Assembly: GCA_964645795.1 (NCBI GenBank)
Contig: CAZYCL010000001.1
Span: 95,194 to 159,193, forward strand
Direction: 5' to 3'
Length of the DNA stretch: 64,000 nt
Origin: an uncultured Planctomycetales bacterium
Lineage (GTDB): Bacteria; Omnitrophota; Gorgyraeia; Gygaellales; Profunditerraquicolaceae
The notes under the pieces were generated by a model that saw only the letters and a list, made by a program, of their open reading frames with translations, was not told the DNA's origin and did not search any database. The position numbers and the translations under genes were made by a program. This document shows, in pieces, positions 7,776 to 64,000 of the stretch (the first letter of the stretch is position 1; each line of letters begins with the position of its first letter).

Positions 7776-7981
7776 TAGATCAAAAAGAAACCTCCCCCCA
7801 CTCCGCGCCTTACGCCGATGAGCTTTATCTGTTTTAGTTTGCCGACGCATCTTCTGACATAGGCAGGATTGACATTGAGGCTGCGGGATAGATCGAAACT
7901 AGATACGGGACTGCGGTAGCAGGCGTTTTTCTCCCTTAATTCTTTGATTATTTCCTGCTGAAGAAAGCTAAGTCTATACAT
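7775..7981 (-). CDS. Small putative winged-helix DNA-binding protein
   Basis: 68 aa. The stretch DLSRSLNVNPAYVRRCVGKLKQIKLIGVRRGVGGGFFL resembles an Rrf2/MarR-like recognition helix plus wing. No clear RBS. Confidence 0.3.
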   Translation of the reverse strand: MYRLSFLQQEIIKELREKNACYRSPVSSFDLSRSLNVNPAYVRRCVGKLKQIKLIGVRRGVGGGFFLI

Positions 7982-10086: not shown

Positions 10087-10920
10087 CTATCCTCCGCCAA
10101 TCAGACCCATCGCCAAGGTGGCGGCCGCGTTTGCCTGCGCTAATGCGGCAACACCAGACTGAACGATTATCTGTGAATTGGTAAGGTTGGTTGTTTCTGC
10201 CGCGATGTCGGCATCATAGATCCTGGAACGAGCTGCTTTAAGGTTAGTGCTGTAGGACTCCTGGGCTGCGGTTGAACGCATCCAACCACTTGCCTGGGCA
10301 CCTAATGCAGCTATTGTCGGACCAACGGTTACCCTTACCGCAGATTTTATCTGCAGGATAGCGCTGTCCGCGCGCTGGATGGTGGAAATTGCCAATCCGG
10401 TAAGAGCTAAACCGCTACCACCGGCGGTCATCGTCTGGATGGACATAGTGACTACATCGGCTGCGGAAGCACCGGTCTGGATGGTTACGCCGGCCAAACT
10501 TCCGTTCATTAATACCCTGCCGTTGTAGTTGGCATTGGTCGTCAACCTCTGAATTTCGCTGATCAACTCCTGAAATTCATAGTTGTATGTGTTTCTCTGA
10601 TCGGGGGTCATCAAACCATTCTTTGCCAGGTATGCCAACTCGTTCATCCTCTGCAAATCGTCCTGGACGACGCGCAGAAATGAATCGGCGGTATTCAAGG
10701 CATCGATGGCCATATACAGGTTATTGGTACCGACATCAGTACCAGTAATCTGGAACTGCATCTGCAGGGCCATTAGATAACCTGCCGGATCGTCGTATGC
10801 GTGATTGATTCTGGAACCAGAAGAGAGTTTCTCTAGAGCCGATGTCAACGCCCTCTGCGTATACGTGAGGTTCGTCTGGGCTACCAGAGACATCGTATTG
10901 GTGAGAATTCTAAAACCCAT
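10087..10920 (-). CDS. fliC: Flagellin; short form with D0/D1 domains only
   Basis: N-terminus MGFRILTNTMSLVAQTNL and C-terminus ...QANAAATLAMGLIGG are canonical flagellin. 277 aa with a Ser/Thr-rich middle. AAGGAGG ribosome-binding site. Confidence 0.9.
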   Translation of the reverse strand: MGFRILTNTMSLVAQTNLTYTQRALTSALEKLSSGSRINHAYDDPAGYLMALQMQFQITGTDVGTNNLYMAIDALNTADSFLRVVQDDLQRMNELAYLAKNGLMTPDQRNTYNYEFQELISEIQRLTTNANYNGRVLMNGSLAGVTIQTGASAADVVTMSIQTMTAGGSGLALTGLAISTIQRADSAILQIKSAVRVTVGPTIAALGAQASGWMRSTAAQESYSTNLKAARSRIYDADIAAETTNLTNSQIIVQSGVAALAQANAAATLAMGLIGGG

Positions 10921-28443: not shown

Positions 28444-30063
28444 CTACCCTCCGTTTTTCAATGCCGCCAGCTGCGCTATCCTGGCTCTTGCCTCTTGATT
28501 ATCCGGGTTTATTTTTAGCACCCTTTCGTATTCCTTAAGCGCGTTGTCTTTATCGCCTTTGGCCTGGTGGCATTTGCCAAGGCATAAGTGGGCGACTTCG
28601 TGTTCAGGATAAAACTTGATCACCCGGTTAAAATCCCTTATCGCCACATCAAACCTTCCTTCACGCATATTGATATTATTTAGAAAATTAATATTTAAGT
28701 TTGTTTCAAACCATTTACCCTGCAGATACTCGGGGTCAAATTCGGGTGTCTTTATGCTGCCGATGGTATACTTTAACTTAGATAACTGGAAATCTCCGAC
28801 AAGATACCCCTTTTCTTTGCATATATCATACATAGCAGTACCGGGCAGAGGCGTAGCAATATTCATCGCTACCCAATCAAGGCCTACGGTCCTGATAAAA
28901 TTAAGCGTTTCTTCGACTTGAGATTTATTTTCATCGGGAAAACCGATGATAAAAAACCCCTTGGTGTGTAATCCTAAGGCGCGCATCTTCTTGACTAAAG
29001 GCGCTACCCTGGACAGATCCAGCGGTTTATGCACTATATTATCAAGCACCTCCTGCGAGCCAGATTCAATAGCGATAGCCACCGAAAAGCATCCCGATTC
29101 TTTCATAAGTTCCACGGTCGATTCATCGAGGGCAAAAACCGCCAGGCCGTTAGGCGCGCACCAGGAGATGTTGAATTTTTGTGCGATCATGTTGCTAAAT
29201 ATCTCTTTTGCCCGCGGGATATTAAAAGTCATATTGTCGTCTTCAAAATGTATCTCCCTTATGCCATAATCCCTCACTAAAATTCCTATTTCTTCCAGAA
29301 CGTTGCGGCTGGAGCGGATGCGGTACTTTTTGCCCCATAACTTTAGGGCCGAACAAAAAATACAACGGGCGGGACAGCCGCGCGAAGTGATCATGGTGGC
29401 AAAAGGCATGCGCAGAAAATCGCCGTGCGGCTGGGATATTTCGGAGTATAACTTCATGGGGATAAGGTGCCTGGCGGGAAACGGGATTGAATCCAGATCT
29501 TCAATAAACTTTGTTTTCTGGTTAATGCGCAGGCTGCCGCCCTTGCGATAAGCCAAACCGTCAAAATCATCAAACTCTAGGTTCTTCTCCAGGCGCTCGA
29601 TCAGCTCCGGCAGCGCATAATCGCCCTCTCCCAAGACAGCAAAATCAACCAACTCATCCTCCATCACCAGCTGCGGAAAGGTTGTCGGATGGGCTCCGCC
29701 CATGACCGTAATTATATCTTTGTCCGCATCCTTGGCCAACCGGCATAAGTTGTGCGCATCCCTATATTTATTGGTAAGCACGCAGGATACGCCTACCATA
29801 TCAGGCTTGAATTCGATTATCCTTTCCTTTATGCCGCTGTCGGTAAGGCCGTAGCGGATCATGCCTGCGGAGAGCTTGGAAGGGGACAAAAACCCTTCCA
29901 CCAGGCAATCAACGATCTTGACATCATAACCCAGCTTTTCCAGCACCGCAGCAACATAGGCGATCCCCAGCGGAGGCACGACCGGCATGCGCTGCTGCTG
30001 CACGGCGCCTTCAGGCAATGTAACCGGCGGCTCAAATAATATTATCTTCTTTATCTTTTTCAC
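28444..30063 (-). CDS. B12-binding (class B) radical SAM enzyme with a C-terminal TPR
   Basis: N-terminal cobalamin-binding Rossmann region (VGVSCVLTNKY...VMGGAHPT). TSRGCPARCIFCS radical SAM motif. C-terminal TPR (EYERVLKINPDNQEA). Confidence 0.85.
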   Translation of the reverse strand: MKKIKKIILFEPPVTLPEGAVQQQRMPVVPPLGIAYVAAVLEKLGYDVKIVDCLVEGFLSPSKLSAGMIRYGLTDSGIKERIIEFKPDMVGVSCVLTNKYRDAHNLCRLAKDADKDIITVMGGAHPTTFPQLVMEDELVDFAVLGEGDYALPELIERLEKNLEFDDFDGLAYRKGGSLRINQKTKFIEDLDSIPFPARHLIPMKLYSEISQPHGDFLRMPFATMITSRGCPARCIFCSALKLWGKKYRIRSSRNVLEEIGILVRDYGIREIHFEDDNMTFNIPRAKEIFSNMIAQKFNISWCAPNGLAVFALDESTVELMKESGCFSVAIAIESGSQEVLDNIVHKPLDLSRVAPLVKKMRALGLHTKGFFIIGFPDENKSQVEETLNFIRTVGLDWVAMNIATPLPGTAMYDICKEKGYLVGDFQLSKLKYTIGSIKTPEFDPEYLQGKWFETNLNINFLNNINMREGRFDVAIRDFNRVIKFYPEHEVAHLCLGKCHQAKGDKDNALKEYERVLKINPDNQEARARIAQLAALKNGG

Positions 30064-30121
30064 TTTTCCTCAATGCTGCATTTTTAGATACAGACAAAAA
30101 TCTTGGCAATTTTGGCTATTT

Positions 30122-31729
30122 TCAGGAATTAAGCCTTTCTTTGGCTTCACTGGAATCCGGGTTAAGCTCTAACGCTGTTCTCCACTCTCTGGCCGCTTCC
30201 TCAACCATGCCTTTCTTTTTATAGGCATCGCCTAAGAAGAGGTGGCCGTACCAGATATGCGGATAAAACTCCAGGACGGACTGAAAATCCCTGATCGCTT
30301 CGTCAATATCATATTTAATCAAATTAGGGTTATTCCTGAAATTTATGTCGATATTGGCTTCCTCTTTGACCTTCTCAACGTAATCGCCGTCAAACTCAGG
30401 AGTCTGGATATTGCCGGCGTAGAAACTGTGCGCGAAATCCACGGATTCGTCCTTTAGATAGCGCTTATTCTTGCAAATCTCATAAATCTTGGTCCCCACC
30501 AGAGGCGTGGCGATAAAAAACAGGGTCCAGTCCAGCTCAAGGCTTTTGGCGAAATCCACTGTCTTTTGCATGGTCTTCTTAGTCTCTCCGGGAAAGCCTA
30601 AAATAAAAAATCCCTTGGTCTTCATGCCCAGCGAGCGCGCCTTATCTGCGAGCGGTTTGGCGCGGTTAAGCTTTATCGGTTTGTGCATCAATTTATCCAG
30701 GACATGCTGGTCTCCGGATTCGACGGCCAGCGAAATGCTGTAACAGCCGCTTTGCGCCATTTTTTCCAGCAACTCCTCGTCTAAGGAATAAATCGCCAGG
30801 CCGCTGGGGACGGTCCAACTGATATTAAATTTTCTATCGATTATCCCGTTAAATATCTCCAGGGCGCGCTTTTTGTTGGAGGTTAAATTGTCGTCTTCAA
30901 AGTGTATTTCCTTGACTCCGTACTTTTTGATGAGAAACTCAATTTCTTCAAGGATGCTTTTGCTTGAGCGGTAGCGCGGGACCTTTCCCCATAAAAGCTC
31001 TATTGAGCAGAATGTGCATTTGGCAGGGCAGCCGCGCGAGCTGATAATCGAAGCGAAAGGTTTGTTTTTGTAGCCGCTGTGCGCCGAGCCAAGCCGGCTG
31101 TACTCCTGCATGCTTAAAAGGTGCCGCGCGGGAAAAGGCAGGGTATCGAGATTAGGGATAAAATGCGCCTTGTGGACACAATTAATTTTTCCTTCGTGAC
31201 GATAGGCGATACCATCGAGCATCCTTGGGTCTCCGCCTGACTTAATAATGCCTAACAACTGCAAGAAAGTCATTTCTCCTTCGCCTAAAATTACGTAATC
31301 AATGTTTATTTCATTTTCCAGGAGCTCTCTGGCAATAGCCGTAGGATGCACCCCCCCTACAGCCACCAAACACCGGGGGTTGACTTTCTTAACAATGCGG
31401 CTGGCGTTGCGCATATCCCAATCCTTGTTTGAAAAAAGACACGAAATGCCGACAATATCGGGATTTTCTTTACGCAGGATCTCTTCGATCTGCTGGTCAG
31501 TCAGGCCATAACGCAACATCCCTTCGTTATATTTTTGCTGCCCCTGCCCTGCCCCCTCCAGTAGCGCATCAATAATCTTTACCTCATAGCCTGAATCCTC
31601 CAGCACCGCTGCGATATAGGCCAGCCCCAAAGGCGCGAATACGCTGACGCGACAACGCTCTTTAGAGAAATCCGCGGGCCTGGTCACCGGAGGGTCTATC
31701 AGCAATATCTTTTTTATCCTACTGGTCAT
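30122..31729 (-). CDS. B12-binding radical SAM enzyme with a C-terminal TPR; tandem paralog of the 28444-30063 protein
   Basis: Roughly 55-60% identical by eye to the neighbouring protein over the core (FPARHL...SSRGCPAKCTFCS...EIHFEDDN...KFNISW). TPR tail EWRTALELNPDSSEA. Confidence 0.85.
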   Translation of the reverse strand: MTSRIKKILLIDPPVTRPADFSKERCRVSVFAPLGLAYIAAVLEDSGYEVKIIDALLEGAGQGQQKYNEGMLRYGLTDQQIEEILRKENPDIVGISCLFSNKDWDMRNASRIVKKVNPRCLVAVGGVHPTAIARELLENEINIDYVILGEGEMTFLQLLGIIKSGGDPRMLDGIAYRHEGKINCVHKAHFIPNLDTLPFPARHLLSMQEYSRLGSAHSGYKNKPFASIISSRGCPAKCTFCSIELLWGKVPRYRSSKSILEEIEFLIKKYGVKEIHFEDDNLTSNKKRALEIFNGIIDRKFNISWTVPSGLAIYSLDEELLEKMAQSGCYSISLAVESGDQHVLDKLMHKPIKLNRAKPLADKARSLGMKTKGFFILGFPGETKKTMQKTVDFAKSLELDWTLFFIATPLVGTKIYEICKNKRYLKDESVDFAHSFYAGNIQTPEFDGDYVEKVKEEANIDINFRNNPNLIKYDIDEAIRDFQSVLEFYPHIWYGHLFLGDAYKKKGMVEEAAREWRTALELNPDSSEAKERLNS

Positions 31730-33162
31730 TTCTTTCTTGCGGCAATGGACTGCGCGGTGACGTTGCGGCCGCGCAACTTTGGCGTCCTCTTATAATAAAA
31801 CTCTAACAGCTTCTTAACTCCGGGCACTCCCCTAAAGTAAAAAAATAGTTTCGATAACCAAAGCGCGGTATACGGTATAACGCTTGCCAACTGGTAATAA
31901 AAATCGGATTCGTCATAGTCAGAATACCCGCGCTCGTAGGGGTTGGTTCTCGGGACTACCCCTCTTTGTTTATATATCTCTTCCAATTCTGTACGGGGAT
32001 AGGCTGTTAAGGCATAAAGCGTCAAGGAAAACGGCCGGGCAATTTTAAGAAGAAGCTTTATGGTCTGGTTGCGGTCACGATCCTCTTCCAGGTCGTTTTG
32101 TATAATGATATCGTAGTAAGGATACACTTGGTTGCGGCTTAATATACGCGATGAACCGACTACGGCGCTTTTATTGAACGACCGATGGTAGATCAGGCGG
32201 TGCGTACGGCTGCTGCCCGACTGTATGCCGATCTGAGTAAACATCAAACCCGCATCCTTTAATTTCTTTAGTACGCCGTCATCGAAACTGCCCGGCACAA
32301 GCCTTACGATAAAAGGCAGCCCTACCTCTTTCGTATAACGTTCGATAAATTCGTCATTCCACTGCCTGGAAGTCAGAAATTGATCATCAATAAAATTAAC
32401 GAATTTGATATTCGGGATATACTCTAAGGCATATTTGATCTCGGCAATGACGTGACCGACGCTTCGTTTCCTTATCCTGTTACCCTCTTTATAGAGGCTA
32501 TTTAAATAGCTGTTACAGCAATAGCTGCAGCTAAAGGGGCAGCCTCGCGTTGCCATTAAAGTATAATCCTCGCCCCGGTAATTTGAATACCTTACATACT
32601 CCTCTTGGCTGAACCGGCGAAGGCCGAATCTGTCAATAACATAAAAATCAGACCAGCCGTACCGCGGGAAGGCAATACTGTCTAAGTCGCTATTTAACTG
32701 CGGAGGATTTATGATGCACTTGCCTTCTTTTGTCTTTAAGCCGATGCCGGGTATCGAAGAAATATCCCTTCCGGTAAAAAAACATTGCAGTAGCTTAAGA
32801 AACGCTACCTCTCCTTCCCCGATACATACGCTATCTGCATATTCAAGGCATTCCTGCGGCATAAGCGTCGGGTGTATCCCTCCCCATGTAATGTGAGCGC
32901 GGTCAAGAAATTTTTTTATATCCGAGGTTAGGCGGCGGCTGAAATCCATCCCATCGGTCATCAGCGATATGCCGACTACCGAGAAGGCCTCTGCGTTCAG
33001 CAGCTCCCTCAATTGCTCGCTATTATATTCGTCTTGCCTTGGGACAAAAAGGAGCTTTACATCGATAGAAGCTGCCTTTAATGCCGAATACAGCGAAAGA
33101 CAGCTTAAATTACGGTGACTGTCGCGTAAAATAGAAATAAGGAGAACGCTTGGTTCAGGCAT
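31726..33162 (-). CDS. B12-binding radical SAM enzyme
   Basis: VVGISLMTDG...ITWGGIHPT B12 region and MATRGCPFSCSYCCNS. No TPR tail. Confidence 0.8.
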   Translation of the reverse strand: MPEPSVLLISILRDSHRNLSCLSLYSALKAASIDVKLLFVPRQDEYNSEQLRELLNAEAFSVVGISLMTDGMDFSRRLTSDIKKFLDRAHITWGGIHPTLMPQECLEYADSVCIGEGEVAFLKLLQCFFTGRDISSIPGIGLKTKEGKCIINPPQLNSDLDSIAFPRYGWSDFYVIDRFGLRRFSQEEYVRYSNYRGEDYTLMATRGCPFSCSYCCNSYLNSLYKEGNRIRKRSVGHVIAEIKYALEYIPNIKFVNFIDDQFLTSRQWNDEFIERYTKEVGLPFIVRLVPGSFDDGVLKKLKDAGLMFTQIGIQSGSSRTHRLIYHRSFNKSAVVGSSRILSRNQVYPYYDIIIQNDLEEDRDRNQTIKLLLKIARPFSLTLYALTAYPRTELEEIYKQRGVVPRTNPYERGYSDYDESDFYYQLASVIPYTALWLSKLFFYFRGVPGVKKLLEFYYKRTPKLRGRNVTAQSIAARKK

Positions 33163-43377: not shown

Positions 43378-44334
43378 TTATCTTTCGTCGTATAGAGATT
43401 CGATCTTTACTGCCACCCTTTTGCCGCACAAACCCGGCTTGCCGAAGAACTTGCTTAAGCCTCCGATCTGCACTTCAAGAAGACCTTCCTTGGGTTTATC
43501 CAACCTGATATAATCCCCTGCTTGCAGCTTAAGCAGGTCTTTAAGCGTCAGCTCGCAATCCCCGAGCTTGCCTACGATTGTAAGTTTGGTGTTGCCCAGA
43601 TGGGTCTTTATCAGTCCGCCTAGCTCTATCTCGGATTTCTTCTGCGCATACATAAACCACTTCTTGATGTCCAGATGCTCGGTAAGCGACTCCAGGGTCA
43701 GATACGGCAGGCAGATCACCGCCTCCCCTGCCACGTTCTTGATCTTAATCTCGAGGTTGATGAAGAGCGCGGCCTCATTGGGAGATGCCAGCACCACAAA
43801 CTGGGGGTTTGAGTCGGTAGATTCGATACGCGGCTCAAACTGTATCGTTTTCTCAAACGACTCCTTCAGGCACGATAGGATCCTGCCGGCAAACACCGTG
43901 GCGGTCTCGGTCTCTATCTGGGAAAGCTCCCGGTTCTCGGGCTTTGCGGCGTTTTCTCCACCCAGAAGCTGCTCCATTAGATAGACAAGAAATCCCGTCT
44001 CGATGACAATTGCTGAAGTCCCGTCCAGCGGTTTTACCGTAAATATGCCGATGTAAGAAGGATAGTGCATTGAAAGAAACTCCTTGAACACCGACTGCCG
44101 TATAGAGCTGATATTGACCTCGATATCCAGTCGCAGGTGCTGCGAGAGCCGTTTCCTGAGCCTGTGGCAGAAATCCTCCATCAGCATCTGGAAGACCCTC
44201 AGATGCTCCTTGGATAGCCTCTCGGGCGCGTGAAAGTCGTAGGGCCGGACAATTTTCCCTTTCAGGTCCAAATTCTTCTCGGCCTCACCCTTAAGCAAAG
44301 CCTCCATCTCTTCTTTTGAAAGTATGTCGCTCAT
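43378..44334 (-). CDS. fliM: Flagellar motor switch protein FliM
   Basis: MSDILSKEEMEALLKG N-terminus (CheY-P-binding-like) plus the FliM middle domain. 318 aa. Confidence 0.85.
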   Translation of the reverse strand: MSDILSKEEMEALLKGEAEKNLDLKGKIVRPYDFHAPERLSKEHLRVFQMLMEDFCHRLRKRLSQHLRLDIEVNISSIRQSVFKEFLSMHYPSYIGIFTVKPLDGTSAIVIETGFLVYLMEQLLGGENAAKPENRELSQIETETATVFAGRILSCLKESFEKTIQFEPRIESTDSNPQFVVLASPNEAALFINLEIKIKNVAGEAVICLPYLTLESLTEHLDIKKWFMYAQKKSEIELGGLIKTHLGNTKLTIVGKLGDCELTLKDLLKLQAGDYIRLDKPKEGLLEVQIGGLSKFFGKPGLCGKRVAVKIESLYDER

Positions 44335-44336
44335 TT

Positions 44337-44639
44337 CTAACCTCCGGATTTTCTCCTAAAATGCGCATCTACGGAATATACCCAGGCCATGACCTCGGCC
44401 ACGAGTTGATACAGGCTTTCAGGGATAGCCTTATCAAGCGAAACCTCATAAAGCATTGCCATAAGATGCGAGTCGGCGTAGATCGGGACATCGCTTTGTT
44501 GGGCTACCTCTATTATCTTTTTCGCCAGGTTTCCCCTGCCTTTAGCGGTTACCCTTGGAGCCGCATCCGTTCCGGCATCGTACCTCAGCGCTACGGCGGC
44601 ATCGGGATCGGAACTTGTCTTCTTCTTGGTTATGATCAT
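44337..44639 (-). CDS. Stand-alone FlhB C-terminal-domain homolog (EscU/YscU family, FhlB-domain protein)
   Basis: 100 aa. ...AKKIIEVAQQSDVPIYADSHLMAMLYEV...LYQLVAEVMAWVY matches the FlhB C-terminus after the NPTH site. Confidence 0.8.
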   Translation of the reverse strand: MIITKKKTSSDPDAAVALRYDAGTDAAPRVTAKGRGNLAKKIIEVAQQSDVPIYADSHLMAMLYEVSLDKAIPESLYQLVAEVMAWVYSVDAHFRRKSGG

Positions 44640-45559
44640 GCCTTTATCTCCAGGCGCGGCAAAAGCGAAGGCAGGTAATCCCCGGCTGCCGCGGTCTTAC
44701 ATTTGAAATCATTCAAAACAAACCTTATGCCTTTAAGACGACTGGCCAGATCAGGCGACCCCCCCTTAATGGCCGCCAGGACGCTCTCATTTTCTACGCT
44801 CAGGCTGCAGGAAACCTGTTTTTTGCGCACCCGGACAAAGACGTTGACCATCCCCAGCGAGTCGGTATCCAAATTAAGATTAAAGCTGAAGGAATCGGTA
44901 TTGAACGCACCCCGCCTGTCGGTTTCGGGATAAACAACCAGCTCCATCTTCCTTTTTTTGCCGTCTTCGGGGTTAAGCGTAAAAGGGAAATATAGAAAAC
45001 TGGTTTTTGCCGAGCTATTGCTTGCCGCTTCACGATTAAAGAAATTAACCGACTCAAGCATCTCCAGGAAGCTAGATATCCTCTCTTTAAGGGCAACAAC
45101 AGTCGCATCTTTATGAGTAAGCTGCATAAAGAGCTCAAGGAGGTTGAGCTTAAGCTCTCCTGCCCCGTTATAAACTTCGATTACGCTCCTTACAAATGAA
45201 ACGGTAATCTCCTTGCTGTTAAGCGAGTTGTTTAAAGACAACAGTGATTTCATCGCGTTATTCAACTGGCTTAAGAGCTGCTTATCGGTTATTTCATTCT
45301 TTGCCGCTGACAGCAGCTCCAGGATGTCGTTTATTTCCTTTAAGAGGAAGAAACCGTTATTATTAAAGTTATCGAGCACGATCCTGAATAAACCGAGCCT
45401 GCGCTCAGACATGGAAGAAACGAGGTAGCTTTCTGCTTCCTTGTGCCCGGAAGCTAAAGCAGGCGCCCTGGCGTTTTCCGGCGTTTGGCCTTCGACCTGC
45501 TGACTGCCTGAAGGCTTATGTTTTACTGACTGAGGTAGGTCCAAATGCCTTATCTGCAT
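44636..45559 (-). CDS. FliK-like protein with a Flg_hook-type C-terminal domain (second copy in the window)
   Basis: The C-terminal block LGMVNVFVRVRKKQVSCSLSVENESVLAAIKGGSPDLASRLKGIRFVL resembles the FliK C-terminal domain. Coupled by a 4-nt overlap to the FlhB-C homolog. Confidence 0.45.
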   Translation of the reverse strand: MQIRHLDLPQSVKHKPSGSQQVEGQTPENARAPALASGHKEAESYLVSSMSERRLGLFRIVLDNFNNNGFFLLKEINDILELLSAAKNEITDKQLLSQLNNAMKSLLSLNNSLNSKEITVSFVRSVIEVYNGAGELKLNLLELFMQLTHKDATVVALKERISSFLEMLESVNFFNREAASNSSAKTSFLYFPFTLNPEDGKKRKMELVVYPETDRRGAFNTDSFSFNLNLDTDSLGMVNVFVRVRKKQVSCSLSVENESVLAAIKGGSPDLASRLKGIRFVLNDFKCKTAAAGDYLPSLLPRLEIKA

Positions 45560-46032
45560 TATCTTGCCCTGTTTAAAATACCCAATCTCAGCTCCACTTC
45601 CCCTACTCCGATGCCAAGGTTCCGGGCGATATCATGTGCCGCCAAACCCTGCTGGTGAAGCTCAAATACCTTGCGAAAGCTGCTCTGGTTCCCTGAGCCA
45701 AAAGCGAATCCGGAAGGTTCTGGCACGGTCTCGGCTGCCCTAGAGAGCTCATCTAAGCGCTCGTCAACCAGCTTTAAGAGCTCGTTAAGACTTGCCTCTC
45801 TTTGGGCCAGCATATCTGATTTTGACTGTATATCGGCAAGCAGCTCGGTGACCGCGGCTTTCAGCGTCTCCGACTGTTTCTGGATATCTTCTTTTATATC
45901 CGCCGGCAGGGCTTCTTCGGACTGGCCGTTGTTATTATTGGCCCTGAAACGGCTCCTGAAGAAGTTTATCATCAGGTAGTTTACCCCCAAGCCTATACCC
46001 GTCAAGAATATAAAAGCCGCTACATATTTCAT
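45559..46032 (-). CDS. Membrane-anchored coiled-coil protein with a C-terminal HTH-like motif
   Basis: N-terminal transmembrane segment (AAFIFLTGIGLGVNYLMI), a coiled coil, and C-terminal LAAHDIARNLGIGVGEVELRL. Confidence 0.4.
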   Translation of the reverse strand: MKYVAAFIFLTGIGLGVNYLMINFFRSRFRANNNNGQSEEALPADIKEDIQKQSETLKAAVTELLADIQSKSDMLAQREASLNELLKLVDERLDELSRAAETVPEPSGFAFGSGNQSSFRKVFELHQQGLAAHDIARNLGIGVGEVELRLGILNRAR

Positions 46033-47096: not shown

Positions 47097-47795
47097 CTAT
47101 CTCTGCATCTCTTTCTTTACAAGCCTGAGCTTATCCCTGAGGACATCGATTACATTACTCAATAGCTGCGATATGCGTGACTCGCTTAGATCCATGACCT
47201 TGCCGATCTCTTTCAAGTTTAAGCCCTCATAATAATAAAGCGTGACTACCTGTCTTTCTTTTTCTTCAAGGACGCTGATCGCCTCGGCCAAAACCGCCGC
47301 AATCTCTTTCTCCTCAAGCTCTCTTGTCCCTTCTTCCCGGGTATCCGCAAGCGCGTCCTGAAGCTCCTCTTCCAGGGAAATAATCTTTGCCTGCTGCGAT
47401 TCAAACTGCATGGTCCTGACCTGCTCGACAGAAACCTTTAAATGCTGGGCAACTTCGTAATCGTGCGGTTCGCGGCCGAACTTTCCTTTTAATCCCTCTA
47501 CGGTGCTTTCCATATGCTTGATCTTATGCCGCAGGGGCCTGGGCAGCCAGTCTTGAGCGCGCAGACCGTCGAGTATCGCACCCCTTATACGGTAAAACGC
47601 GTAAGTAGAAAACTTTACATTCCTTGAAGGGTTAAAACTTCTTATGGCCTCCATAAGACCGAGCACTCCGTAACCTATCAGGTCATCCAGGTCTACGTGC
47701 GTGGGCAGATTGGCAAAAAGCCTGAAAGCCACGCTCTTGACCAGCGGCAGGTAGCCGATAACCTCTTCCTGCGCAACATCCTTTAATTTGCTCAT
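47097..47795 (-). CDS. fliA: Flagellar sigma factor sigma-28 (FliA/SigD)
   Basis: Region 2 (LIGYGVLGLMEAIRSFNPSRNVKFSTYAFYRIRGAILD) and region 4 (LNLKEIGKVMDLSESRISQL). Confidence 0.9.
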   Translation of the reverse strand: MSKLKDVAQEEVIGYLPLVKSVAFRLFANLPTHVDLDDLIGYGVLGLMEAIRSFNPSRNVKFSTYAFYRIRGAILDGLRAQDWLPRPLRHKIKHMESTVEGLKGKFGREPHDYEVAQHLKVSVEQVRTMQFESQQAKIISLEEELQDALADTREEGTRELEEKEIAAVLAEAISVLEEKERQVVTLYYYEGLNLKEIGKVMDLSESRISQLLSNVIDVLRDKLRLVKKEMQR

Positions 47796-48166
47796 TTGCT
47801 TATCATCGCCTCTACGGCCTTGGCCATCTCTTTCGGTTTCTCTCTGGCCAACTCCAGGGTTTCTCTCTTCATTGCCTCAAGCGCCGGTTCCTGCCCTTGC
47901 GCTGGATTCGCCGAAGGCGCAGCCGCAGCGCCTACCTTAACATCCAGCTTCTCCCCCTTTGCGGCCTGGGGCTTAGAAGCATCGCCTGCCTTATCCTTGG
48001 TCACCGGATCGACAAAAGCGCAGATGATGTTCCCCAGGATAATAAAAACAATGAATGCGCCCAGGCTTTTCAACAATATGCTCTCTATCGGCTCGTTTCT
48101 TATGAGCCCGAAGAGCTCGATAAACAGAAATGTGATCATCGAAAAATAAATAACGAATATTCGCAT
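47792..48166 (-). CDS. Small two-TM membrane protein of unknown function, translationally coupled to fliA
   Basis: Two hydrophobic helices followed by an Ala/Lys/Glu-rich tail. 4-nt overlap with the fliA start. Confidence 0.45.
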   Translation of the reverse strand: MRIFVIYFSMITFLFIELFGLIRNEPIESILLKSLGAFIVFIILGNIICAFVDPVTKDKAGDASKPQAAKGEKLDVKVGAAAAPSANPAQGQEPALEAMKRETLELAREKPKEMAKAVEAMISK

Positions 48167-48856
48167 TTAAATCTTCTTTATGCTGGTAACCGCAAGCTTG
48201 CGGATTATATCTTTGTGTTCCTCGCTGATCATGAGAAACTGCACCCGGGTTACATACTTGACATTGGGCTGGATGACCTCTTGGGATAAAGCCTTGCCCA
48301 CGGCCTCAACCCAGGTGTTGGCACTTACGATCGTAAGGTTTATGCGGATCTTTAAAAGCGTGCCGGCCGCGATCATCCGGTCTACAACCAGCTGCAGACC
48401 TCCTTCAGACAGGTCCTTGGTTATCGCCTCAAGATTAGTCACGATCTTGTTGGTATCGTAAAGGCTTAAATCCGTAGCGTTGATTATGGCGTACTCTGCC
48501 GGCAGGTATGCGTTTATGCGGAAAAACTGCCTCATCTGCACGTGCTCTATCTTCTTGGGCTTTTCCAGGGCGATGGTATAACCGTTGTCCCAATCCTGAG
48601 AAATTACCTTGCTGCTAAACTCGAATATACCGCCCTCAATGTAGACTTTTACCAGCACCTCCGTCTTTGGAGGGATCTCAAGCACGGTAGAGCCGACCCT
48701 CGGGGTAAGTATAAGCAGCTTATCGGACTCGCACGATACGACCTGGGATTTATAGACCTCGCGCAAAGCGATGCTTAAAGTAAGGTCGACCTTCTGGCCC
48801 ATGTCGAACTTGTTCCAATAAAGCTCTTCCTGGGGACCTAGACCAAACCAGCCCAT
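48167..48856 (-). CDS. PilZ-domain c-di-GMP receptor, YcgR (flagellar brake)-like
   Basis: RQFFR (RxxxR) and DLSEGG (D/NxSxGG) c-di-GMP-binding motifs. N-terminal YcgR-N-like domain. Confidence 0.7.
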   Translation of the reverse strand: MGWFGLGPQEELYWNKFDMGQKVDLTLSIALREVYKSQVVSCESDKLLILTPRVGSTVLEIPPKTEVLVKVYIEGGIFEFSSKVISQDWDNGYTIALEKPKKIEHVQMRQFFRINAYLPAEYAIINATDLSLYDTNKIVTNLEAITKDLSEGGLQLVVDRMIAAGTLLKIRINLTIVSANTWVEAVGKALSQEVIQPNVKYVTRVQFLMISEEHKDIIRKLAVTSIKKI

Positions 48857-49542
48857 CTCAAGCTCCTTAACCTCTCTTGAATATATTTGTTAAGCACGTT
48901 TTCCTTGTTTTCCCCGATGTTCAAAAATCTTACCCCGTAATACCACTTATCAAGGCTTGGCCGCGTATACTTCCAGACGATCTCCCCCGCAAACACCGTT
49001 TTCTCCTCACCCATACCCGAAATAGTCACGTCTATGCCGGTCTTAAGGGGAAGGTCTACGGTAGAGACCATGGCTATGCCGCCGATACTGATGTTTCTGG
49101 TCAGTCCGCGGCTTGAATCCTTCAGCAGTCCGCCGGAGACCTTAAAAGAAGCGTCCAAAACGTTGTCCAGGCGGAAGGCCTTGCGCCTTTCGGCATAGGC
49201 CGCAAGCTTCTTGGGCTTACTCAGGACCCACATCGGCAGCGGCTGGCTGATCTTCTTCTTAAGCACGCATTTATTCTTATAATAAAATTCGTCCATGAAG
49301 ACAAAAATCTCCAGCTTCTCGTCGGGCAACACAACGGAAAAATTAAGCTCCTTATCCGTCACCGCAGAAATATAAATGTTATCCTTATCCACGTCCTCGA
49401 TGCGGGTAATAAATGTATTGGGGAGCGACTCAAGCTTGATTCCCACTCTCTGGTTGGGCTTGATATCATGACAGCCCCCCGCCGGCTTTAATGACCTGAG
49501 CCTTTCGACGATCTCCTTCCACATCTTTAAAAGACCCCCCAT
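48838..49542 (-). CDS. PilZ-domain c-di-GMP receptor, YcgR-like (tandem paralog)
   Basis: RRKAFR and NISIGG motifs. Confidence 0.7.
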   Translation of the reverse strand: MGGLLKMWKEIVERLRSLKPAGGCHDIKPNQRVGIKLESLPNTFITRIEDVDKDNIYISAVTDKELNFSVVLPDEKLEIFVFMDEFYYKNKCVLKKKISQPLPMWVLSKPKKLAAYAERRKAFRLDNVLDASFKVSGGLLKDSSRGLTRNISIGGIAMVSTVDLPLKTGIDVTISGMGEEKTVFAGEIVWKYTRPSLDKWYYGVRFLNIGENKENVLNKYIQERLRSLRWAGLV

Positions 49543-50384
49543 CTCACAGGGCTGAAATCCTGCCTGCTTAAAAGCCTATCCGCTATAGCTAAACAATCGT
49601 TTGAGGCCTGGCTGTAAGGATATTTCAGGACAAATGGCGTCCTGGCCTTGAGCGACTTTATCACCTCCGGCAGCAGCAAAACAAAACCCAGGTCTTCGAC
49701 CTCAATATCCTGGAACTTCTTTACCGTAGCAATGAGCTTTCTTGATTGCGTAACCGCCTCGCGCTCGCTATGGCACATGTTCATGATCAGTTTTAATGAC
49801 AGTTGGCGCTTGTCGTGAACAAGCTGCTTTATCATGGCGTAAGAGCGGGTCAACATCTCCTGGCCTCCAGATACCAGCATCACGACCTCGCCCGTTGCCA
49901 GCGCAAACCTTGGCGCATCTTCACTGATAAGAATAAGATCGGCCTCTTCTTCAAAGGACAGCCAGTGGCTAAAGAAATCGTTCTTGGCTTTGAAATCCAG
50001 CTTCTGCAGACGGTTAAGCACGTCGCCGAGCTTTACGTATTTGACTCCGCAGGAGCCGGTGTAGATGATTTCTTTTGTCTTGGACTGCTGGCCGAGTATC
50101 TCCTCCAGGCCCGTGCGCGGCTGCAGCCCAAGAGGAATACTCGTATCTATCTTGCCCTTGTAGGAATCGAGGATCATTACCTTCTTTCCCTTCCTGGCCA
50201 AAGACGCCGCGATATTGGCTACGAGGTTGGAGTTGGCGGCTGCGGATTCATGGGGACCAAGGAAAACGATCACCCTTTTTCTTGAATCCAGCTTCTCTTC
50301 AAGAATCTGGGAAAGTCCAAGATCTACCCCCATCTCTTTACGCTTGACCCACCTGCGCAGCCTCTCTGCCTGATCCATTATCAT
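49527..50384 (-). CDS. flhG: FlhG (MinD/ParA-like) paralog with a degenerate Walker A box
   Basis: N-terminal DQAERLRR FlhF-activating motif and MinD-like fold throughout. The P-loop position reads GPHESAAAN instead of GKGGVGKT. Confidence 0.65.
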   Translation of the reverse strand: MIMDQAERLRRWVKRKEMGVDLGLSQILEEKLDSRKRVIVFLGPHESAAANSNLVANIAASLARKGKKVMILDSYKGKIDTSIPLGLQPRTGLEEILGQQSKTKEIIYTGSCGVKYVKLGDVLNRLQKLDFKAKNDFFSHWLSFEEEADLILISEDAPRFALATGEVVMLVSGGQEMLTRSYAMIKQLVHDKRQLSLKLIMNMCHSEREAVTQSRKLIATVKKFQDIEVEDLGFVLLLPEVIKSLKARTPFVLKYPYSQASNDCLAIADRLLSRQDFSPVRWGVF

Positions 50385-51256
50385 CTTATCTTGACCTCAT
50401 CACCCAACTTCAGGTTGTCGGGCGAGGTCTTGATATCACAGGCGCTGACCCTGGCCCGCGCCTCGATTATCTCAAGCTCTCCGACCGCTGCCCCGTTATT
50501 CATGACCAAGAGCCTCATGCCTTTCATGTAGCCGTTTTCCTGGCCCGCGCTTACAAGCACAAATAGAGCATCTTTATTGATAAGCAATATCTTCGGATAT
50601 GCGGCTGCTTCTGCGCCGGATGCCTGAATGCTTCCGATAACCGAGGCGCTTTCCTCAAGCTTCAGGCTTAGCTCGGCTATCTTATCCTGCAGACCGGATA
50701 TCTGTTCCTGGGTACCGTTGACGCTCTCCTCCAGCTGCTGGCGCAGGGCCTGGCGCTCGCGGGCAATCTTATCCGTATTTTCCCTGGCTTCGGAGATCTG
50801 ATCAAGGAGCAACTTGCGTTCCCGTGCCAGAACGCTCAACTGGTCGTTCAGGGAAGAGTTGGTCTGTTCGAAATCCTGCAGCTGTTCGGATAGCTCCTGA
50901 TTCTTTTTGAGATTAGCCGTAAGCCTCTGCTCCAAATCCCTGGTCTTCTCCAGGACGGAGGCGAACTCTTCTTTTAAGCCGCGGCTTTCCCGATTCAGGC
51001 TGTTTATTATGGTTTTGTAACGAATGCTGTTTTGCCAGCTTAAGAAGACAACGAGCATAACGATCGCCAGAATAGCTGTCCCGGTTAAAATTATAGCGAT
51101 ACCCCTTAACCTTGACGCCCGGCCGGCCCTTAAGGACTCGGCGCTGCTTTTGCCAATGAGCGAAGAATAGGTAAGAGGGGCCTCTTCCTGGGCGCCGGCA
51201 TCCTGCCTGCCGGCTAAAACCCTTAGCTTCTCCGCCTGGTCCTTTCCAAACATCAT
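50381..51256 (-). CDS. Membrane-anchored coiled-coil protein carrying an N-terminal DQAxxLR motif
   Basis: MMFGKDQAEKLRVL..., one TM (IAIILTGTAILAIVMLVVFL), a ~120-aa coiled coil, and a C-terminal beta-rich domain (GMRLLVMNNGAAVGELEIIEA...GDEVKI). Inserted between flhF and flhG. Confidence 0.45.
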   Translation of the reverse strand: MMFGKDQAEKLRVLAGRQDAGAQEEAPLTYSSLIGKSSAESLRAGRASRLRGIAIILTGTAILAIVMLVVFLSWQNSIRYKTIINSLNRESRGLKEEFASVLEKTRDLEQRLTANLKKNQELSEQLQDFEQTNSSLNDQLSVLARERKLLLDQISEARENTDKIARERQALRQQLEESVNGTQEQISGLQDKIAELSLKLEESASVIGSIQASGAEAAAYPKILLINKDALFVLVSAGQENGYMKGMRLLVMNNGAAVGELEIIEARARVSACDIKTSPDNLKLGDEVKIR

Positions 51257-52365
51257 TTCTTGGTCGCCTCTGCTTTCTTAATAAATGGGTTGAAATCCTT
51301 GGTTAATATGAGCCTGGCCAGCTTCATGGGATCAGCCAACTCTATGTCTTCCGGGACATTCTGCCCGGTAGTGATATAGGATATCGGCCTTTTTGAGCCT
51401 GTGGCGGCAGTAAGCAGGTTGCCGAAGCTGGTTACTTCATCGATCTTGGTGAGGATCACGCGGTGGATCCTGGCAAGCTCAAAACGGTTGAAGATCTCGA
51501 TCATCTCCTTAGGCTTTGTGGTCATGCTTATGAGAAGAGAGACCTCAATGCTGCCGTCTTGGCCGATAAAATTGCGCAACTCATCCATTTGAAGATCGTT
51601 AAGGGGGTTCCTTCCGGCAGTGTCAATAAGGATGAGGTCCTTGTCTTTATACTTCTTGAATGCGGGTATTAGCTCTTTAGGGGTAAACACTACCTCAATC
51701 GGAATACCCATAATCTCGGCATAGGTCTTGAGCTGCTCGACAGCCGCGATCCTGTAGGTATCCAGGGTTATCAGGGCGACCTTCTTCTTCTCCAGGAGCG
51801 TAAAGTTTGCGGCCAGCTTTGCTATGGTGGTGGTCTTTCCTACTCCCGTAGGGCCGACAAAGGCAATTATCTTATTGTTTTCGGCGCTAAGCGGTCCCGA
51901 GGCTTCGATGGTTTGCGCGATCTGCCTGATCAGGAGCTCCTCAAGCAAATGAACGTCCTTAAGTTCTTTTTCGGTGGCGCGTTGCTGGATGCGCTTGATC
52001 AGGTCTTCGGCGATCTCCTCCTGGACTTCGCAATCCAGAAGCTTCTGATAGGCCTGCCTTAGGCCCAAAGCCATAAAGGCGGTCTTGGGAGAACTCTGTA
52101 TGTTCTGAAGGGCGACTTCCTTCATAAAATCCTTTATCTCTCTTAACTCGTACTGGATCATCTCCAGCTTTGTTTGGTTGACCGCTTCGCGTTGCATATC
52201 CTCGACACCGGCGATCACTTCGATGCTCAATATGGGATGCAGCCGGAACGAGCGGTAGCGCTTTATCTCTTTGACGTAAAGCACGACCGCTTCGGGGCCA
52301 AGATCAAGCTTTATCTGAGACAGCGCCTCCTGGATGCTTTTTGCTTCAAACCTTTTTACTCTCAT
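51253..52365 (-). CDS. flhF: Flagellar biosynthesis GTPase FlhF
   Basis: SRP-type GTPase motifs: FVGPTGVGKTTTIAKLA, DTAGR, TKIDE. Confidence 0.9.
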   Translation of the reverse strand: MRVKRFEAKSIQEALSQIKLDLGPEAVVLYVKEIKRYRSFRLHPILSIEVIAGVEDMQREAVNQTKLEMIQYELREIKDFMKEVALQNIQSSPKTAFMALGLRQAYQKLLDCEVQEEIAEDLIKRIQQRATEKELKDVHLLEELLIRQIAQTIEASGPLSAENNKIIAFVGPTGVGKTTTIAKLAANFTLLEKKKVALITLDTYRIAAVEQLKTYAEIMGIPIEVVFTPKELIPAFKKYKDKDLILIDTAGRNPLNDLQMDELRNFIGQDGSIEVSLLISMTTKPKEMIEIFNRFELARIHRVILTKIDEVTSFGNLLTAATGSKRPISYITTGQNVPEDIELADPMKLARLILTKDFNPFIKKAEATKK

Positions 52366-58001: not shown

Positions 58002-58910
58002 TTAAACCCTCTCGTTGGGATTGATGATATGCGTCAGCCTTACGCCGATGTTCTCGTCGATTATCACAACTTCGCCCTTAGCCAAAGGTTTGTTGTTAAG
58101 CATTATATCCACCGGCTCGCCGGAGAGCCTCTCCAGCTCTATGATCGAACCCACTCCCAGCTCTAAAACGTCCTTTAACGGCATCCTGGTCCTTCCCAGC
58201 TCCACGCTTAACTGCAGCGGTATATCCACAAGGAGGCTGCCCAGATCTCCGCTTGGAGAGGCCCCGCTTTTTTCCAAAGGAAAGAGGTTTAACGGTTCGA
58301 TGTTCTGGCCGGCCTTCTGCAGCTTTGCAGGAAGCGCCTGAGCCAGCTCTCCTGCTACATCTTGCCCCAGCCCCAGTAAAAGCGAACCATCGGCAATTCC
58401 TTCCAGGCTTACCTGCGCGCTTATAAGGGTCCCGGAGGACGATGCCTGGCTGATCACCGAAGCCCCGTCAGCCTCAAGCGTAGAAAGCTTTAAGTCCGGG
58501 TTGCTCAGGTTTACCTTTTTACTCAATGTCTGCGAGAGTGCCGCGGAAAATGCCGCCAGCATTTGATTGACCAGCTGCGTCAATACCCCCAGCTCGTTCT
58601 GGCCGATCTGCTCAGGAGGATTCTTGCCGCTACCACCCGTAGAGATGTCGCAGAGTATGCGGGCGAAATTTTCGTCTATCGCCAAGATGCCTTCCCCCTG
58701 CACGTCATTGGCAATAGCAAACCGGCTGATAAGCTGCGCTGAGGGATAGCGGCCAGCCAGCTCTTCGACGGATAATGTCGCGATCTCCTGAAGGCTGATT
58801 TGTGTTTTTACCCTTAAGACCGTGGAAAGCAGCGTCGCCGTCTGTTTTAAAACTTGAGCGAAAATCAACTTGAGCGCTTCGGCGCTCTTTGTTTCAAGAC
58901 CGTTTGCCAT
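58002..58910 (-). CDS. fliY: Flagellar motor switch protein FliY/FliN
   Basis: C-terminal FliN/SpoA domain (LELGVGSIIELERLSGEPVDIMLNNKPLAKGEVVIIDENIGVRLT). 302 aa with a CheC-like N-terminal half. Confidence 0.85.
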   Translation of the reverse strand: MANGLETKSAEALKLIFAQVLKQTATLLSTVLRVKTQISLQEIATLSVEELAGRYPSAQLISRFAIANDVQGEGILAIDENFARILCDISTGGSGKNPPEQIGQNELGVLTQLVNQMLAAFSAALSQTLSKKVNLSNPDLKLSTLEADGASVISQASSSGTLISAQVSLEGIADGSLLLGLGQDVAGELAQALPAKLQKAGQNIEPLNLFPLEKSGASPSGDLGSLLVDIPLQLSVELGRTRMPLKDVLELGVGSIIELERLSGEPVDIMLNNKPLAKGEVVIIDENIGVRLTHIINPNERV

Positions 58911-62925: not shown

Positions 62926-64000
62926 TTATATAAGGTAATTAACAAGCGCTGTCTCAAGATAATAATTCGGCTGAGTTTCACCTAAATTATCCGAAACCAG
63001 CGCTTTTTCAGCATCGTTTTCCACTTCTTCGAACCAGAGAGCGTTGGCCGTATCGGGGGCAACGAACTGCCCCTTGGGATGCTCGCTACCTGCGCGGGCA
63101 TCAACGCCGACAGAAACGGAGAACCTGTCCGTGGTAAAACCCCGGTCTCTCAAGGAATCCTTAAGCATTGAGAAGTTACTCTCCAGGGTCTCCTTGACCG
63201 CAAGGTTCGATACCTGGATACGTACAGACACCTTGCCGTCTTCCAGGGTCACCTTTAAAAAAGCCCTTCCCAGGTGTTCAGGCTTAAGCTCAATGAATGC
63301 CTCCTGAACCCGATCCCTGAGACTGGTATGGATCCTCTGGACGAACTGGTCCACGACCTCCTTCTGATTCAGCATTTGGTTGAGCGCATCGGCCTCTTCC
63401 AGGAACTTGGCCGCGTTATTGGCCAAAGCTTCGGTCTTTTCCGCGGACAAAGCGCTGCCTGCCGTAAAGATATTCGCTCCCCCTTCATTATCAAGATTAT
63501 TCTCGGCTAAATTGAACTTCAGCCCGATCTCTTTAATGAGGTTATCGCTCTTCGGCAGCTGCAGATACCTCGATTCGATATCAACGGGTTTATCCTTGGT
63601 TGATACCGTATCGGTTTCGCTCTTGGAAAGCACACCCTCCTGGCGGAGTCCATATGCCTTTGCGCTTGTATCCAAATCAGTCAGCTTTACCGATCTGGAT
63701 AGGTTTTGCGCTAAAGTAAGAAGTTTTTCGTAGGTCAGTCCTGCGGTCTCCGGTTTCTCAACCGGCGCATTATTGCCCTCGACTGCGACAGCGTCTGCTT
63801 CTGGCTGTTCCTGGACCTGGGGGAGATTATTGGCGATCTCCGGCTTTTGTTTAAGCTGTAACGAAACCAGCTCCGACAAAAGCTCCTGCCAACTAACTCC
63901 GGACAGCTTAACAGGCGTGCCATCGGCTTTTGCTTGCCCCAGCTTATCAAAAAGCAACTGAATAAGCTCAGAGCTCCCTTTCAGTTCTTCCAGCAGCTGG
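62926..64000 (-). CDS. fliK: Hook-length control protein FliK; 5' end beyond the window
   Basis: C-terminal Flg_hook domain (ELKPEHLGRAFLKVTLEDGKVSVRIQVSNLAVKETLES). The reading frame stays open from 63957 to the window end; the track start is a TTG. Confidence 0.8.
   Translation of the reverse strand, partial: QLLEELKGSSELIQLLFDKLGQAKADGTPVKLSGVSWQELLSELVSLQLKQKPEIANNLPQVQEQPEADAVAVEGNNAPVEKPETAGLTYEKLLTLAQNLSRSVKLTDLDTSAKAYGLRQEGVLSKSETDTVSTKDKPVDIESRYLQLPKSDNLIKEIGLKFNLAENNLDNEGGANIFTAGSALSAEKTEALANNAAKFLEEADALNQMLNQKEVVDQFVQRIHTSLRDRVQEAFIELKPEHLGRAFLKVTLEDGKVSVRIQVSNLAVKETLESNFSMLKDSLRDRGFTTDRFSVSVGVDARAGSEHPKGQFVAPDTANALWFEEVENDAEKALVSDNLGETQPNYYLETALVNYLI

Follow-up and report, generated by a model that had tools for sequence, protein, structure and literature searches.

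A predicted pseudo-ATPase at the flhG position and a membrane protein with a second, putative FlhF enhancer helix in a flagellar supercluster of an uncultured bacterium

The FlhF/FlhG pair is a conserved switch for flagellar number and position in about one-third of bacteria. In the described systems, a glutamine in the enhancer helix of FlhG enters the active site of the FlhF homodimer, where it is co-catalytic and triggers GTP hydrolysis (PMC12826062); in vitro, the activation of FlhF is lost with the Q9A mutation (bioRxiv 10.1101/2022.03.19.484964). FlhG in turn alternates between a monomeric form and a dimeric, ATP-bound form that is held at the membrane by a C-terminal helix (PMC12826062; bioRxiv 10.1101/2022.03.19.484964), and current models rest on this ATP-dependent dimerization and membrane cycling (PMC12826062). 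The flhG gene consistently lies directly downstream of flhF, an adjacency that has been stressed in recent work (PMC12826062). Here, we describe a locus in a 64,000-nucleotide (nt) stretch of contig CAZYCL010000001.1 (referred to as the window) in which the flhG position is occupied by a putative pseudo-ATPase, FlhG*, and in which a membrane protein encoded between flhF and flhG*, referred to as X, carries a second enhancer-like helix. A December 2025 review of FlhF/FlhG diversification makes no mention of an FlhG without a P-loop or of a second protein with an enhancer helix (PMC12826062), and a literature search for degenerate or pseudo-ATPase FlhG returned nothing relevant.

The window is a flagellar supercluster with nearly all genes on the minus strand, and the presence of flgH and flgI in the cluster indicates that the organism is a diderm. 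Three consecutive genes, with product lengths in amino acids (aa), make up the core of the locus:

51253-52365, minus strand: flhF, signal recognition particle (SRP)-type GTPase, 370 aa (TIGR03499, 2.6e-61; Pfam SRP54, 1.6e-42)
50381-51256, minus strand: X, 291-aa bitopic membrane protein, the open reading frame (ORF) between flhF and flhG*
49527-50384, minus strand: FlhG*, 285-aa putative pseudo-ATPase derived from FlhG (enhancer helix and MinD fold present, nucleotide-site motifs missing)

A preliminary description of this stretch had recognized this arrangement, and its coordinates are exact. The flhF product scores 208 bits against TIGR03499 (cut-off, 174), and all of its G1 to G5 motifs are intact (GPTGVGKTT, DTYR, DTAGR, TKIDE, and GQNVPEDI), matching those of Bacillus subtilis FlhF in the alignment (2PX0/3SYN, 5.6e-47). 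The flhF/X and X/flhG* junctions are both 4-nt ATGA overlaps, which suggests that flhF, X, and flhG* form one operon with translational coupling.

FlhG* retains the part of FlhG that acts on FlhF and the overall fold, as was first described, and has lost the nucleotide site. The features that define it are as follows:

50355-50375, minus strand: DQAERLR enhancer-helix motif of FlhG*, residues 4 to 10 (alignment)
50232-50258, minus strand: former P-loop of FlhG*, GPHESAAAN, residues 43 to 51 (alignments and AlphaFold2 [AF2])
49917-49937, minus strand: 6-residue deletion in FlhG*, with the Walker B aspartate and switch II gone (alignments)

The protein begins with MIMDQAERLRR, and residues D4, Q5, A6, L9, and R10 are invariant in 19/19 aligned sequences of FlhG* and canonical FlhG. 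Its AF2 model (predicted local distance difference test [pLDDT], 80.9; predicted template modeling score [pTM], 0.79) has a MinD fold, for which Foldseek returned the FlhG structure 4RZ3 as the best match (1.5e-17; template modeling score, 0.83) together with 5J1J and 4RZ2, all at about 1e-17. A profile built from six FlhG* sequences and searched against the PDB hit FleN (3e-21), FlhG (4RZ2/4RZ3, 6e-16), and MinD (6e-5), with the alignment starting just past the P-loop. Against curated profiles, FlhG* stayed below threshold, the best being minD_arch at 41.3 bits (cut-off, 201.75) and ParA at 18.3 bits (cut-off, 27.1).

At the SGKGGVGK[ST] site of canonical FlhG, FlhG* reads GPHESAAAN, so that the signature lysine is replaced by glutamate and the P-loop lysine by asparagine, and at the DADxGxAN site it reads LDSYKGKID. 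Both replacements had been reported in the preliminary description and hold in our alignments. The damage extends further, as where canonical FlhG has hhhhDTGAG[IV]S, FlhG* has LILIS followed directly by EDA. This 6-residue deletion is identical in 13/13 FlhG* representatives and occurs in no canonical FlhG, and the Walker B aspartate has become serine or asparagine. The C-termini of the FlhG* proteins stop 12 to 20 residues short of the canonical amphipathic membrane-targeting helix (13 sequences aligned), and residues 275 to 285 are disordered in the AF2 model. In the same model, the strand at residues 37 to 42 runs almost straight into the helix at residues 45 to 64, indicating that the glycine-rich phosphate loop is gone.

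A word-indexed protein search with FlhG* returned the protein itself and five relatives at 47 to 63% identity, followed by canonical FlhG at approximately 25%. The family was widened by an exhaustive hidden Markov model (HMM) search over 1.84 billion cluster representatives, which yielded three clade A representatives (>300 bits) and eight more divergent clade B representatives (110 to 175 bits), none of them with KGGxGK[ST]. The FlhG* sequences form one clade in a neighbor-joining tree, and 62 columns are invariant among six clade A sequences. Thirteen representatives, with more than 50% sequence divergence, share the same lesions: the loss of both Walker A lysines, the 6-residue deletion, and the truncated C-terminus. 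As a reference, we assembled 67 flhA-flhF-flhG loci from many phyla, in which KGGVGK[ST] is intact without exception (67/67) and the gap between flhF and flhG ranges from -119 to +99 nt; the corresponding gap in the window family is 769 to 868 nt, and in the window itself it is 868 nt, with X in between. The motif is likewise intact in 133/149 newly returned top profile hits, the motif-less hits being the FlhG* clade, two fragments lacking the motif region, and four isolated degenerate sequences.

We consider an error of sequencing or assembly, or a frameshift concealing the P-loop, vanishingly improbable, and nothing that speaks for it was found. Alignment to canonical FlhG did not restore a GxxGxGK[ST] motif, the outcome that would have refuted the preliminary description, and a Walker A motif is encoded in none of the six reading frames, either in the region or in the whole window. 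A protein identical to the FlhG* of the window occurs on 4 to 5 independent contigs, and twelve further diverged homologs carry the same lesions, by which we regard the artifact as refuted. The shared deletion, the deep divergence, and the kept fold together rule out a pseudogene as well as an artifact. FlhG* is the syntenic descendant (positional ortholog) of flhG and not an extra paralog, as it had at first been called. Its predicted status is that of a selected pseudo-ATPase in which the nucleotide site is comprehensively destroyed, and ATP binding is presumably absent; the loss first suspected from a single sequence is thus a conserved state across 13 representatives of a monophyletic family.

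Other observations on the family concern its distribution and a second conserved segment. Patterns specific to FlhG* found no member among 185,579 GTDB species genomes and one member in a metagenome scan, and as far as the databases show, the variant appears to be confined to a small uncultured diderm lineage. The best counterparts of its FlhA in reference genomes reach an identity of only about 50% and are scattered across many phyla. The four isolated FlhG homologs with a degenerate Walker A outside the FlhG* clade read GPESDIGKAN (P0085, a protein of 722 aa with a 450-residue N-terminal extension), GKGGVGTAT (P0169), GREGVGKT (P0173), and GECGVDRYN (P0190), and FlhG may thus have seen its nucleotide site erode on several occasions. 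Immediately after the enhancer helix of FlhG*, at residues 17 to 26 (approximately 50307-50336), lies a KG[IV]DLxF-type segment, which reads EMGVDLGLSQ in the window. Both FlhG* clades conserve this segment and canonical FlhG lacks it; AF2 confidence is low there, and it may represent a new interaction motif.

X is the second departure from the canonical arrangement. Hydropathy and AF2 bear out its initial description as a 291-aa protein with a DQA start, one transmembrane helix, a long coiled coil, and a C-terminal beta domain. The protein starts MMFGKDQAEKLR, and two features mark this end:

51188-51244, minus strand: enhancer-helix-like N-terminal segment of X, residues 5 to 23 (AF2 helix)
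51221-51241, minus strand: DQAEKLR motif of X, residues 6 to 12

The N-termini of X in the window and in five other loci are as follows:

Window: MMFGKDQAEKLRVLA
L004: MMFNKDQAEKLRDLA
L005: MIYNKDQAENLRVLA
L087: MISKRDQAAKLRALA
L092: MMQKKDQAEKLRWWF
L094: MSVISDQARNLRIIA

The DQAxxLR motif is kept in all full-length X orthologs recovered, and the mean pairwise identity of X is highest over residues 1 to 20 (59%, versus 15% in the transmembrane helix, 27% in the coiled coil, and 40% in the beta domain). Among five orthologs, different synonymous codons are used for the D, A, L, and R of the motif, with no nonsynonymous change, and selection on the peptide is directly evident from this. Compared with 146 canonical helices, X has the most frequent residue at E4, K5, and L9 of the motif and the second most frequent one at A10, so the wider enhancer-helix consensus DQAEKLRxLA also fits. 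The motif is specific: among 3434 ORFs in 87 loci, DQAxxL[RK] occurs only at the N-termini of FlhG proteins and X, and no comparison locus had two ORFs with DQAxxL[RK]. When the N-terminal 40 residues of X were searched by sequence against the PDB, there were zero hits. A chance match, which the preliminary description had entertained as a reason to discard the duplication, is ruled out by this specificity, the regional conservation, the synonymous codons, and the fit to the consensus. On sequence grounds, the X helix is a genuine, selected copy of the enhancer helix, and the duplication of DQAxxLR stands. Identity at nonmotif positions hardly separates an origin by duplication of the 5' end of its own flhG* from one in canonical helices (0.21 versus 0.17).

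The residues after LR differ systematically, being VLA in X and RWV in FlhG*. This difference, and the presence of the same short motif in two proteins of one translationally coupled operon, would suit X as an antagonist or decoy, whose helix competes with that of FlhG* for the two sites of the FlhF dimer and tunes activation, or forms mixed complexes, on a periplasmic cue. We find this improbable, as X shows no sign of altered catalytic residues.

The selection on both helices also bears on a more skeptical explanation, that FlhG* is a decaying or redundant copy, with a canonical FlhG or MinD elsewhere doing the work, and that the motif in X is a functionless relic of an insertion. Such a view could draw on the 64 kb examined being part of a contig of at least 352 kb and on scores for FlhG* far under the thresholds of curated families. 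However, the divergence of more than 50% has left 62 invariant columns in the six clade A sequences, a confident MinD fold, and an invariant enhancer helix; the flhG position is always occupied by FlhG*; there is no other MinD-like gene in the 64-kb supercluster or in the 15 to 21 kb of L094 and L096; and the motif codons of X change only synonymously. We therefore hold redundancy to be very improbable.

Beyond the helix, X consists of a membrane anchor, a rod, and a terminal domain:

51032-51100, minus strand: single transmembrane helix of X, approximately residues 53 to 75 (Kyte-Doolittle maximum of 2.88 at hydropathy window 53)
50624-51031, minus strand: long helix/coiled coil of X, approximately residues 76 to 211 (AF2)
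50384-50593, minus strand: C-terminal beta-barrel of X, residues 222 to 291 (AF2 pLDDT, ~94)

No second hydrophobic segment was found in X by Kyte-Doolittle analysis. AF2 models residues 63 to 211 as one helix with pLDDT up to 98, Pfam matches in this region are coiled-coil noise only, and the coiled coil of approximately 136 residues would measure about 20 nm if extended. For the C-terminal domain, the top two Foldseek matches are the Vibrio LPHT ring (8Z5N, 2.4e-4) and FlgT (3W1E, 5.8e-4), with the N-terminal barrels of F1-ATPase close behind. Pfam FlgT_C (PF16538) matches 18/29 members of the X family at E values of ≤0.01 (best, 2.6e-6); the X of L092 reaches 24.1 bits (4.9e-5) against a gathering score of 27 bits, and the X of the window has no match. 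A profile of the C-terminal domain searched against the PDB hit TsaP (3JC8, 5.6e-5). By these three methods (Foldseek, Pfam, and profile-to-PDB), the domain appears to resemble FlgT-C and TsaP in sequence and in its predicted fold. X as a whole reached threshold with none of the curated families; FipA was considered and rejected along with any other curated family, as X has no DUF2802 match.

A profile search returned approximately 28 homologs of the X body, which are 367 to 413 aa long, end in the same beta domain, start with a signal anchor, and have no DQA segment. One of them is labeled Candidatus Omnitrophota, and two sit between ROK and LacI regulator genes outside flagellar loci. Omnitrophota-type paralogs of the X body were seen in L088 (6001-7188) and in L089 and L090 (6001-7179 in both), beside glycoside hydrolase genes and in a conserved arrangement of ROK regulator, paralog, and LacI regulator; they combine a transmembrane helix, a coiled coil, and an FlgT-C-like barrel. 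X looks like a lineage-specific envelope protein that gained a cytoplasmic N-terminal extension with the FlhG helix. The most likely predicted topology is N-in/C-out, with the coiled coil and barrel in the periplasm, because the paralogs have signal anchors, the domain type is periplasmic, and the helix must be cytoplasmic to meet FlhF. The membrane tether of the preliminary description is therefore right as to the anchor and too simple as to the rest, given the probably periplasmic coiled coil and FlgT-C/TsaP-like beta domain.

A domain of this type would suit binding to a fixed envelope structure, and X is membrane anchored, as are the known FlhF recruiters (PMC12826062). X could then be a landmark or recruiter in the manner of FipA or HubP, its helix capturing GTP-bound FlhF dimers at a site marked by the periplasmic domain and so setting where flagella form and not how many. 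That FlhG* already has an activator helix, which makes a second identical activity look redundant, also speaks for recruitment. Weighing against it, the catalytic glutamine and the full DQAxxLR motif are under purifying selection, so binding would be expected to trigger hydrolysis, and a separate FipA-like gene (DUF6115/DUF2802) is already present in the cluster at 45559-46032. We regard pure recruitment as rather unlikely.

The flhF-X-flhG* order, whose recurrence in related genomes had been proposed as a check, was found in 8/11 distinct FlhG* loci. X orthologs occupy the same position in L004, L005, L006 (partial), L087, L092, L094, and L095 (C-terminal fragment). In the X-less loci L091, L093, and L096, flhF abuts or overlaps flhG*, and the 20.9 kb of L096, an otherwise collinear flagellar cluster, contain no X-like domain and no second DQA ORF. 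The FlhG* proteins of these three loci form one subclade nested among X-bearing branches of a distance tree. A single loss of X in this subclade (P0048/P0051/P0074) is more parsimonious because L094 and L095, which belong to the other clade, carry X. Both X and the degenerate FlhG are likely to be ancestral, with X lost once, as far as a simple distance tree built from short sequences can tell. The X-less subclade also implies that an FlhG without a P-loop can function in the absence of X.

We lean, with moderate confidence, toward a two-activator model in which this lineage has rebuilt the FlhF/FlhG switch with FlhG* and X. FlhG* would be a soluble, nucleotide-independent, constitutive FlhF activator and scaffold, its MinD-like fold presumably serving as a platform for partners. 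X would hold an FlhF-activating or FlhF-binding helix permanently at the inner membrane, the place where canonical FlhG arrives only when ATP bound, and its periplasmic domain may couple the helix to an envelope structure. Activation of FlhF by either helix, like any periplasmic partner of X, is presumptive. The preliminary description had read the locus as a repartitioning of FlhG functions. The loss of the ATP site and the duplication of the motif agree with that reading; on the other side, the helix was duplicated and not moved, as FlhG* keeps its own, and X is dispensable in L091, L093, and L096. The deletion of DTGAG[IV], the loss of the membrane-targeting helix, the positional orthology of FlhG*, and the probably periplasmic, FlgT-C-like nature of X go beyond that first account. 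The idea that membrane association was handed to a different protein is strengthened by the absence of the membrane-targeting helix and switch II from FlhG* and by the FlgT-C-like character of X.

Several points weigh against the two-activator model. The interaction between FlhF and either helix is a prediction from sequence. Our search covered the 64-kb window, and a canonical FlhG or MinD could be encoded in another part of the genome. For the X of the window itself, similarity to FlgT_C is subthreshold, and the Foldseek E values are marginal. The topology of X rests on a weak positive-inside signal (4 versus 3 K/R) and on homology arguments, and paralogs of the X body in nonflagellar contexts indicate that the periplasmic module is not flagellum specific. 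Lastly, the FlhG* subclade of L091, L093, and L096 does without X.

A more elaborate form of the two-activator model, which we put forward as speculative and rather unlikely, would make X a trans-envelope feedback device. The barrel, about 20 nm out, would dock on the L/P ring or another envelope landmark and thereby position or release the helix, so that FlhF is switched off locally, with FlhG* as a nucleotide-free scaffold and activator. If true, a signal from periplasmic assembly would take the place of the FlhG ATP cycle in setting flagellar number or position, and the locus would offer a natural separation of FlhF activation from the ATP/membrane switch and, with it, a novel way for cells to count their flagella.

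This lineage breaks two rules, the ATP cycle and the adjacency of flhF and flhG, and keeps the FlhF-activating helix strictly conserved. The locus can be viewed as a natural separation-of-function variant, in which selection can act on the enhancer helix in the absence of an ATPase cycle and the helix can be carried by an unrelated scaffold. The locus bears on the question of which FlhG activities serve which part of flagellar patterning, for which two peptides, one FlhF, and one pseudo-ATPase are available as testable reagents. FlhG* would also be a pseudo-enzyme of the ParA/MinD family, of which there are few examples.

Downstream of flhG*, the block flhF-X-flhG*-pilZ-pilZ-orf124-fliA is completed by four genes:

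48838-49542, minus strand: YcgR-like PilZ protein 1, PilZN plus PilZ (Pfam PilZ, 3.2e-11; PilZNR, 3.6e-9; RxxxR and NxSxxG)
48167-48856, minus strand: YcgR-like PilZ protein 2 (Pfam PilZNR, 9.6e-12; PilZ, 1.5e-7; RxxxR and DxSxxG)
47792-48166, minus strand: membrane protein of 124 aa that matches no family, located between the PilZ genes and fliA
47097-47795, minus strand: fliA (sigma-28), which closes the block (TIGR02479, 2.3e-73)

PilZ protein 1 lies directly 3' of FlhG*, and this synteny is kept in L001, L005, L006, L091, L093, L094, and L096. Two to three YcgR-like PilZ genes follow FlhG* wherever the loci reach far enough downstream, with X present or absent, and the cyclic di-GMP (c-di-GMP)-binding motifs (RxxxR plus D/NxSxxG) are intact in the tandem YcgR-like proteins of the window. 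This pattern suggests a conserved c-di-GMP input beside the degenerate FlhG. A similar-sized counterpart of the 124-aa membrane protein occupies the same position in L001, L094, and L096.

The gene order around these genes on the minus strand is fliK, flgD, flgE, motA, motB, fliN/Y-like, fliO, fliP, (fliQ), fliR, flhB, and flhA; then flhF, X, FlhG*, the two YcgR-like PilZ genes, the 124-aa membrane protein, and fliA; then a 103-aa ORF, a PRC-barrel protein, a DUF6115/DUF2802 protein, a second FliK-like protein, an FlhB-C-terminal-like protein, and fliM; and finally flgF, flgG, flgA, flgH, flgI, flgJ-like, and flgN. The DUF6115/DUF2802 gene (45559-46032, minus strand), four genes downstream of fliA, encodes 157 aa, in which an N-terminal transmembrane helix and a coiled coil precede a C-terminal domain; its match to DUF6115 is above threshold (1.3e-8) and that to DUF2802 below threshold (5e-4), and L096 has the same gene at this position. 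FipA, which recruits FlhF, has a DUF2802 domain, and judging from these matches, the cluster may also encode a FipA-like partner of FlhF.

The second FliK-like protein (44636-45559, minus strand; Flg_hook domain; compare 62926-63957) is followed by a 100-aa protein (44337-44639, minus strand) whose match to FlhB is limited to the C-terminal portion (Bac_export_2, positions 261 to 335). This pair is extra to the regular fliK and flhB and recurs in L096. Two FliM/FliN-type switch proteins are encoded (58002-58910 and 43378-44334, minus strand); one is a regular FliM (FliM plus FliN_C), and the other, of 302 aa with a partial FliM N-domain plus FliN_C, looks FliY-like. A large putative flagellin-glycosylation island (500-37324, minus strand) lies beside the genes for flagellin (10087-10920), a Maf-type glycosyltransferase (5916-7850), FliD, and FliW. 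Among its products are NeuB, a CMP-sugar transferase, a UDP-GlcNAc 2-epimerase, an asparagine synthase, and a FemAB-like protein, along with three radical-SAM/SPASM enzymes and three radical-SAM enzymes that bind B12, two of which have TPR tails (28444-33162). This radical-SAM set is unusually rich for a flagellar locus.

Among the known proteins closest to X are unnamed ones of approximately 380 to 395 aa (P0018 to P0045) with a transmembrane helix, a coiled coil, and a beta-barrel. Their homology to X extends through the coiled coil and barrel, with invariant F, G, R, and SACDI, but they start at the membrane anchor, lack DQAxxLR, and lie between ROK and LacI genes that are not flagellar. 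The barrel of X also appears to resemble the C-domain of FlgT from the Vibrio H-ring and the C-domains of TsaP from the ring around the type IV pilus secretin. Domains of the FlgT-C and TsaP type reside in the periplasm, where they surround envelope-spanning machines as spokes or rings (bioRxiv 10.1101/2020.05.29.123786). X differs in having a single such domain on a long coiled coil with an anchor and a cytoplasmic helix, with neither the FlgT N and M domains nor LysM.

Among the membrane landmark proteins that recruit FlhF, FipA (DUF2802) and HubP/FimV, X is like FipA in being single pass, encoded near flhF, and proposed to contact FlhF (PMC12826062, PMC11620751). Unlike these proteins, it has no DUF2802 or LysM, its contact would be a copy of the FlhG helix, and its bulk is probably periplasmic and not cytoplasmic. 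FlhG* has its overall fold in common with MinD, although the match is weaker than to FlhG/FleN, and differs from MinD in that the enhancer helix is present and the nucleotide site and membrane-targeting helix are absent. The best comparison is with FlhG/YlxH/FleN (4RZ2, 4RZ3, and 5J1J), from which FlhG* differs in lacking the deviant Walker A, the Walker B/switch II, and the membrane-targeting helix, in having gained KG[IV]DLxF, and in being parted from flhF by X in most members, with the adjacency kept in the X-less subclade. With these proteins, FlhG* shares the DQAxxLR helix, the MinD/ParA fold, and a place in the flhF operon upstream of fliA.

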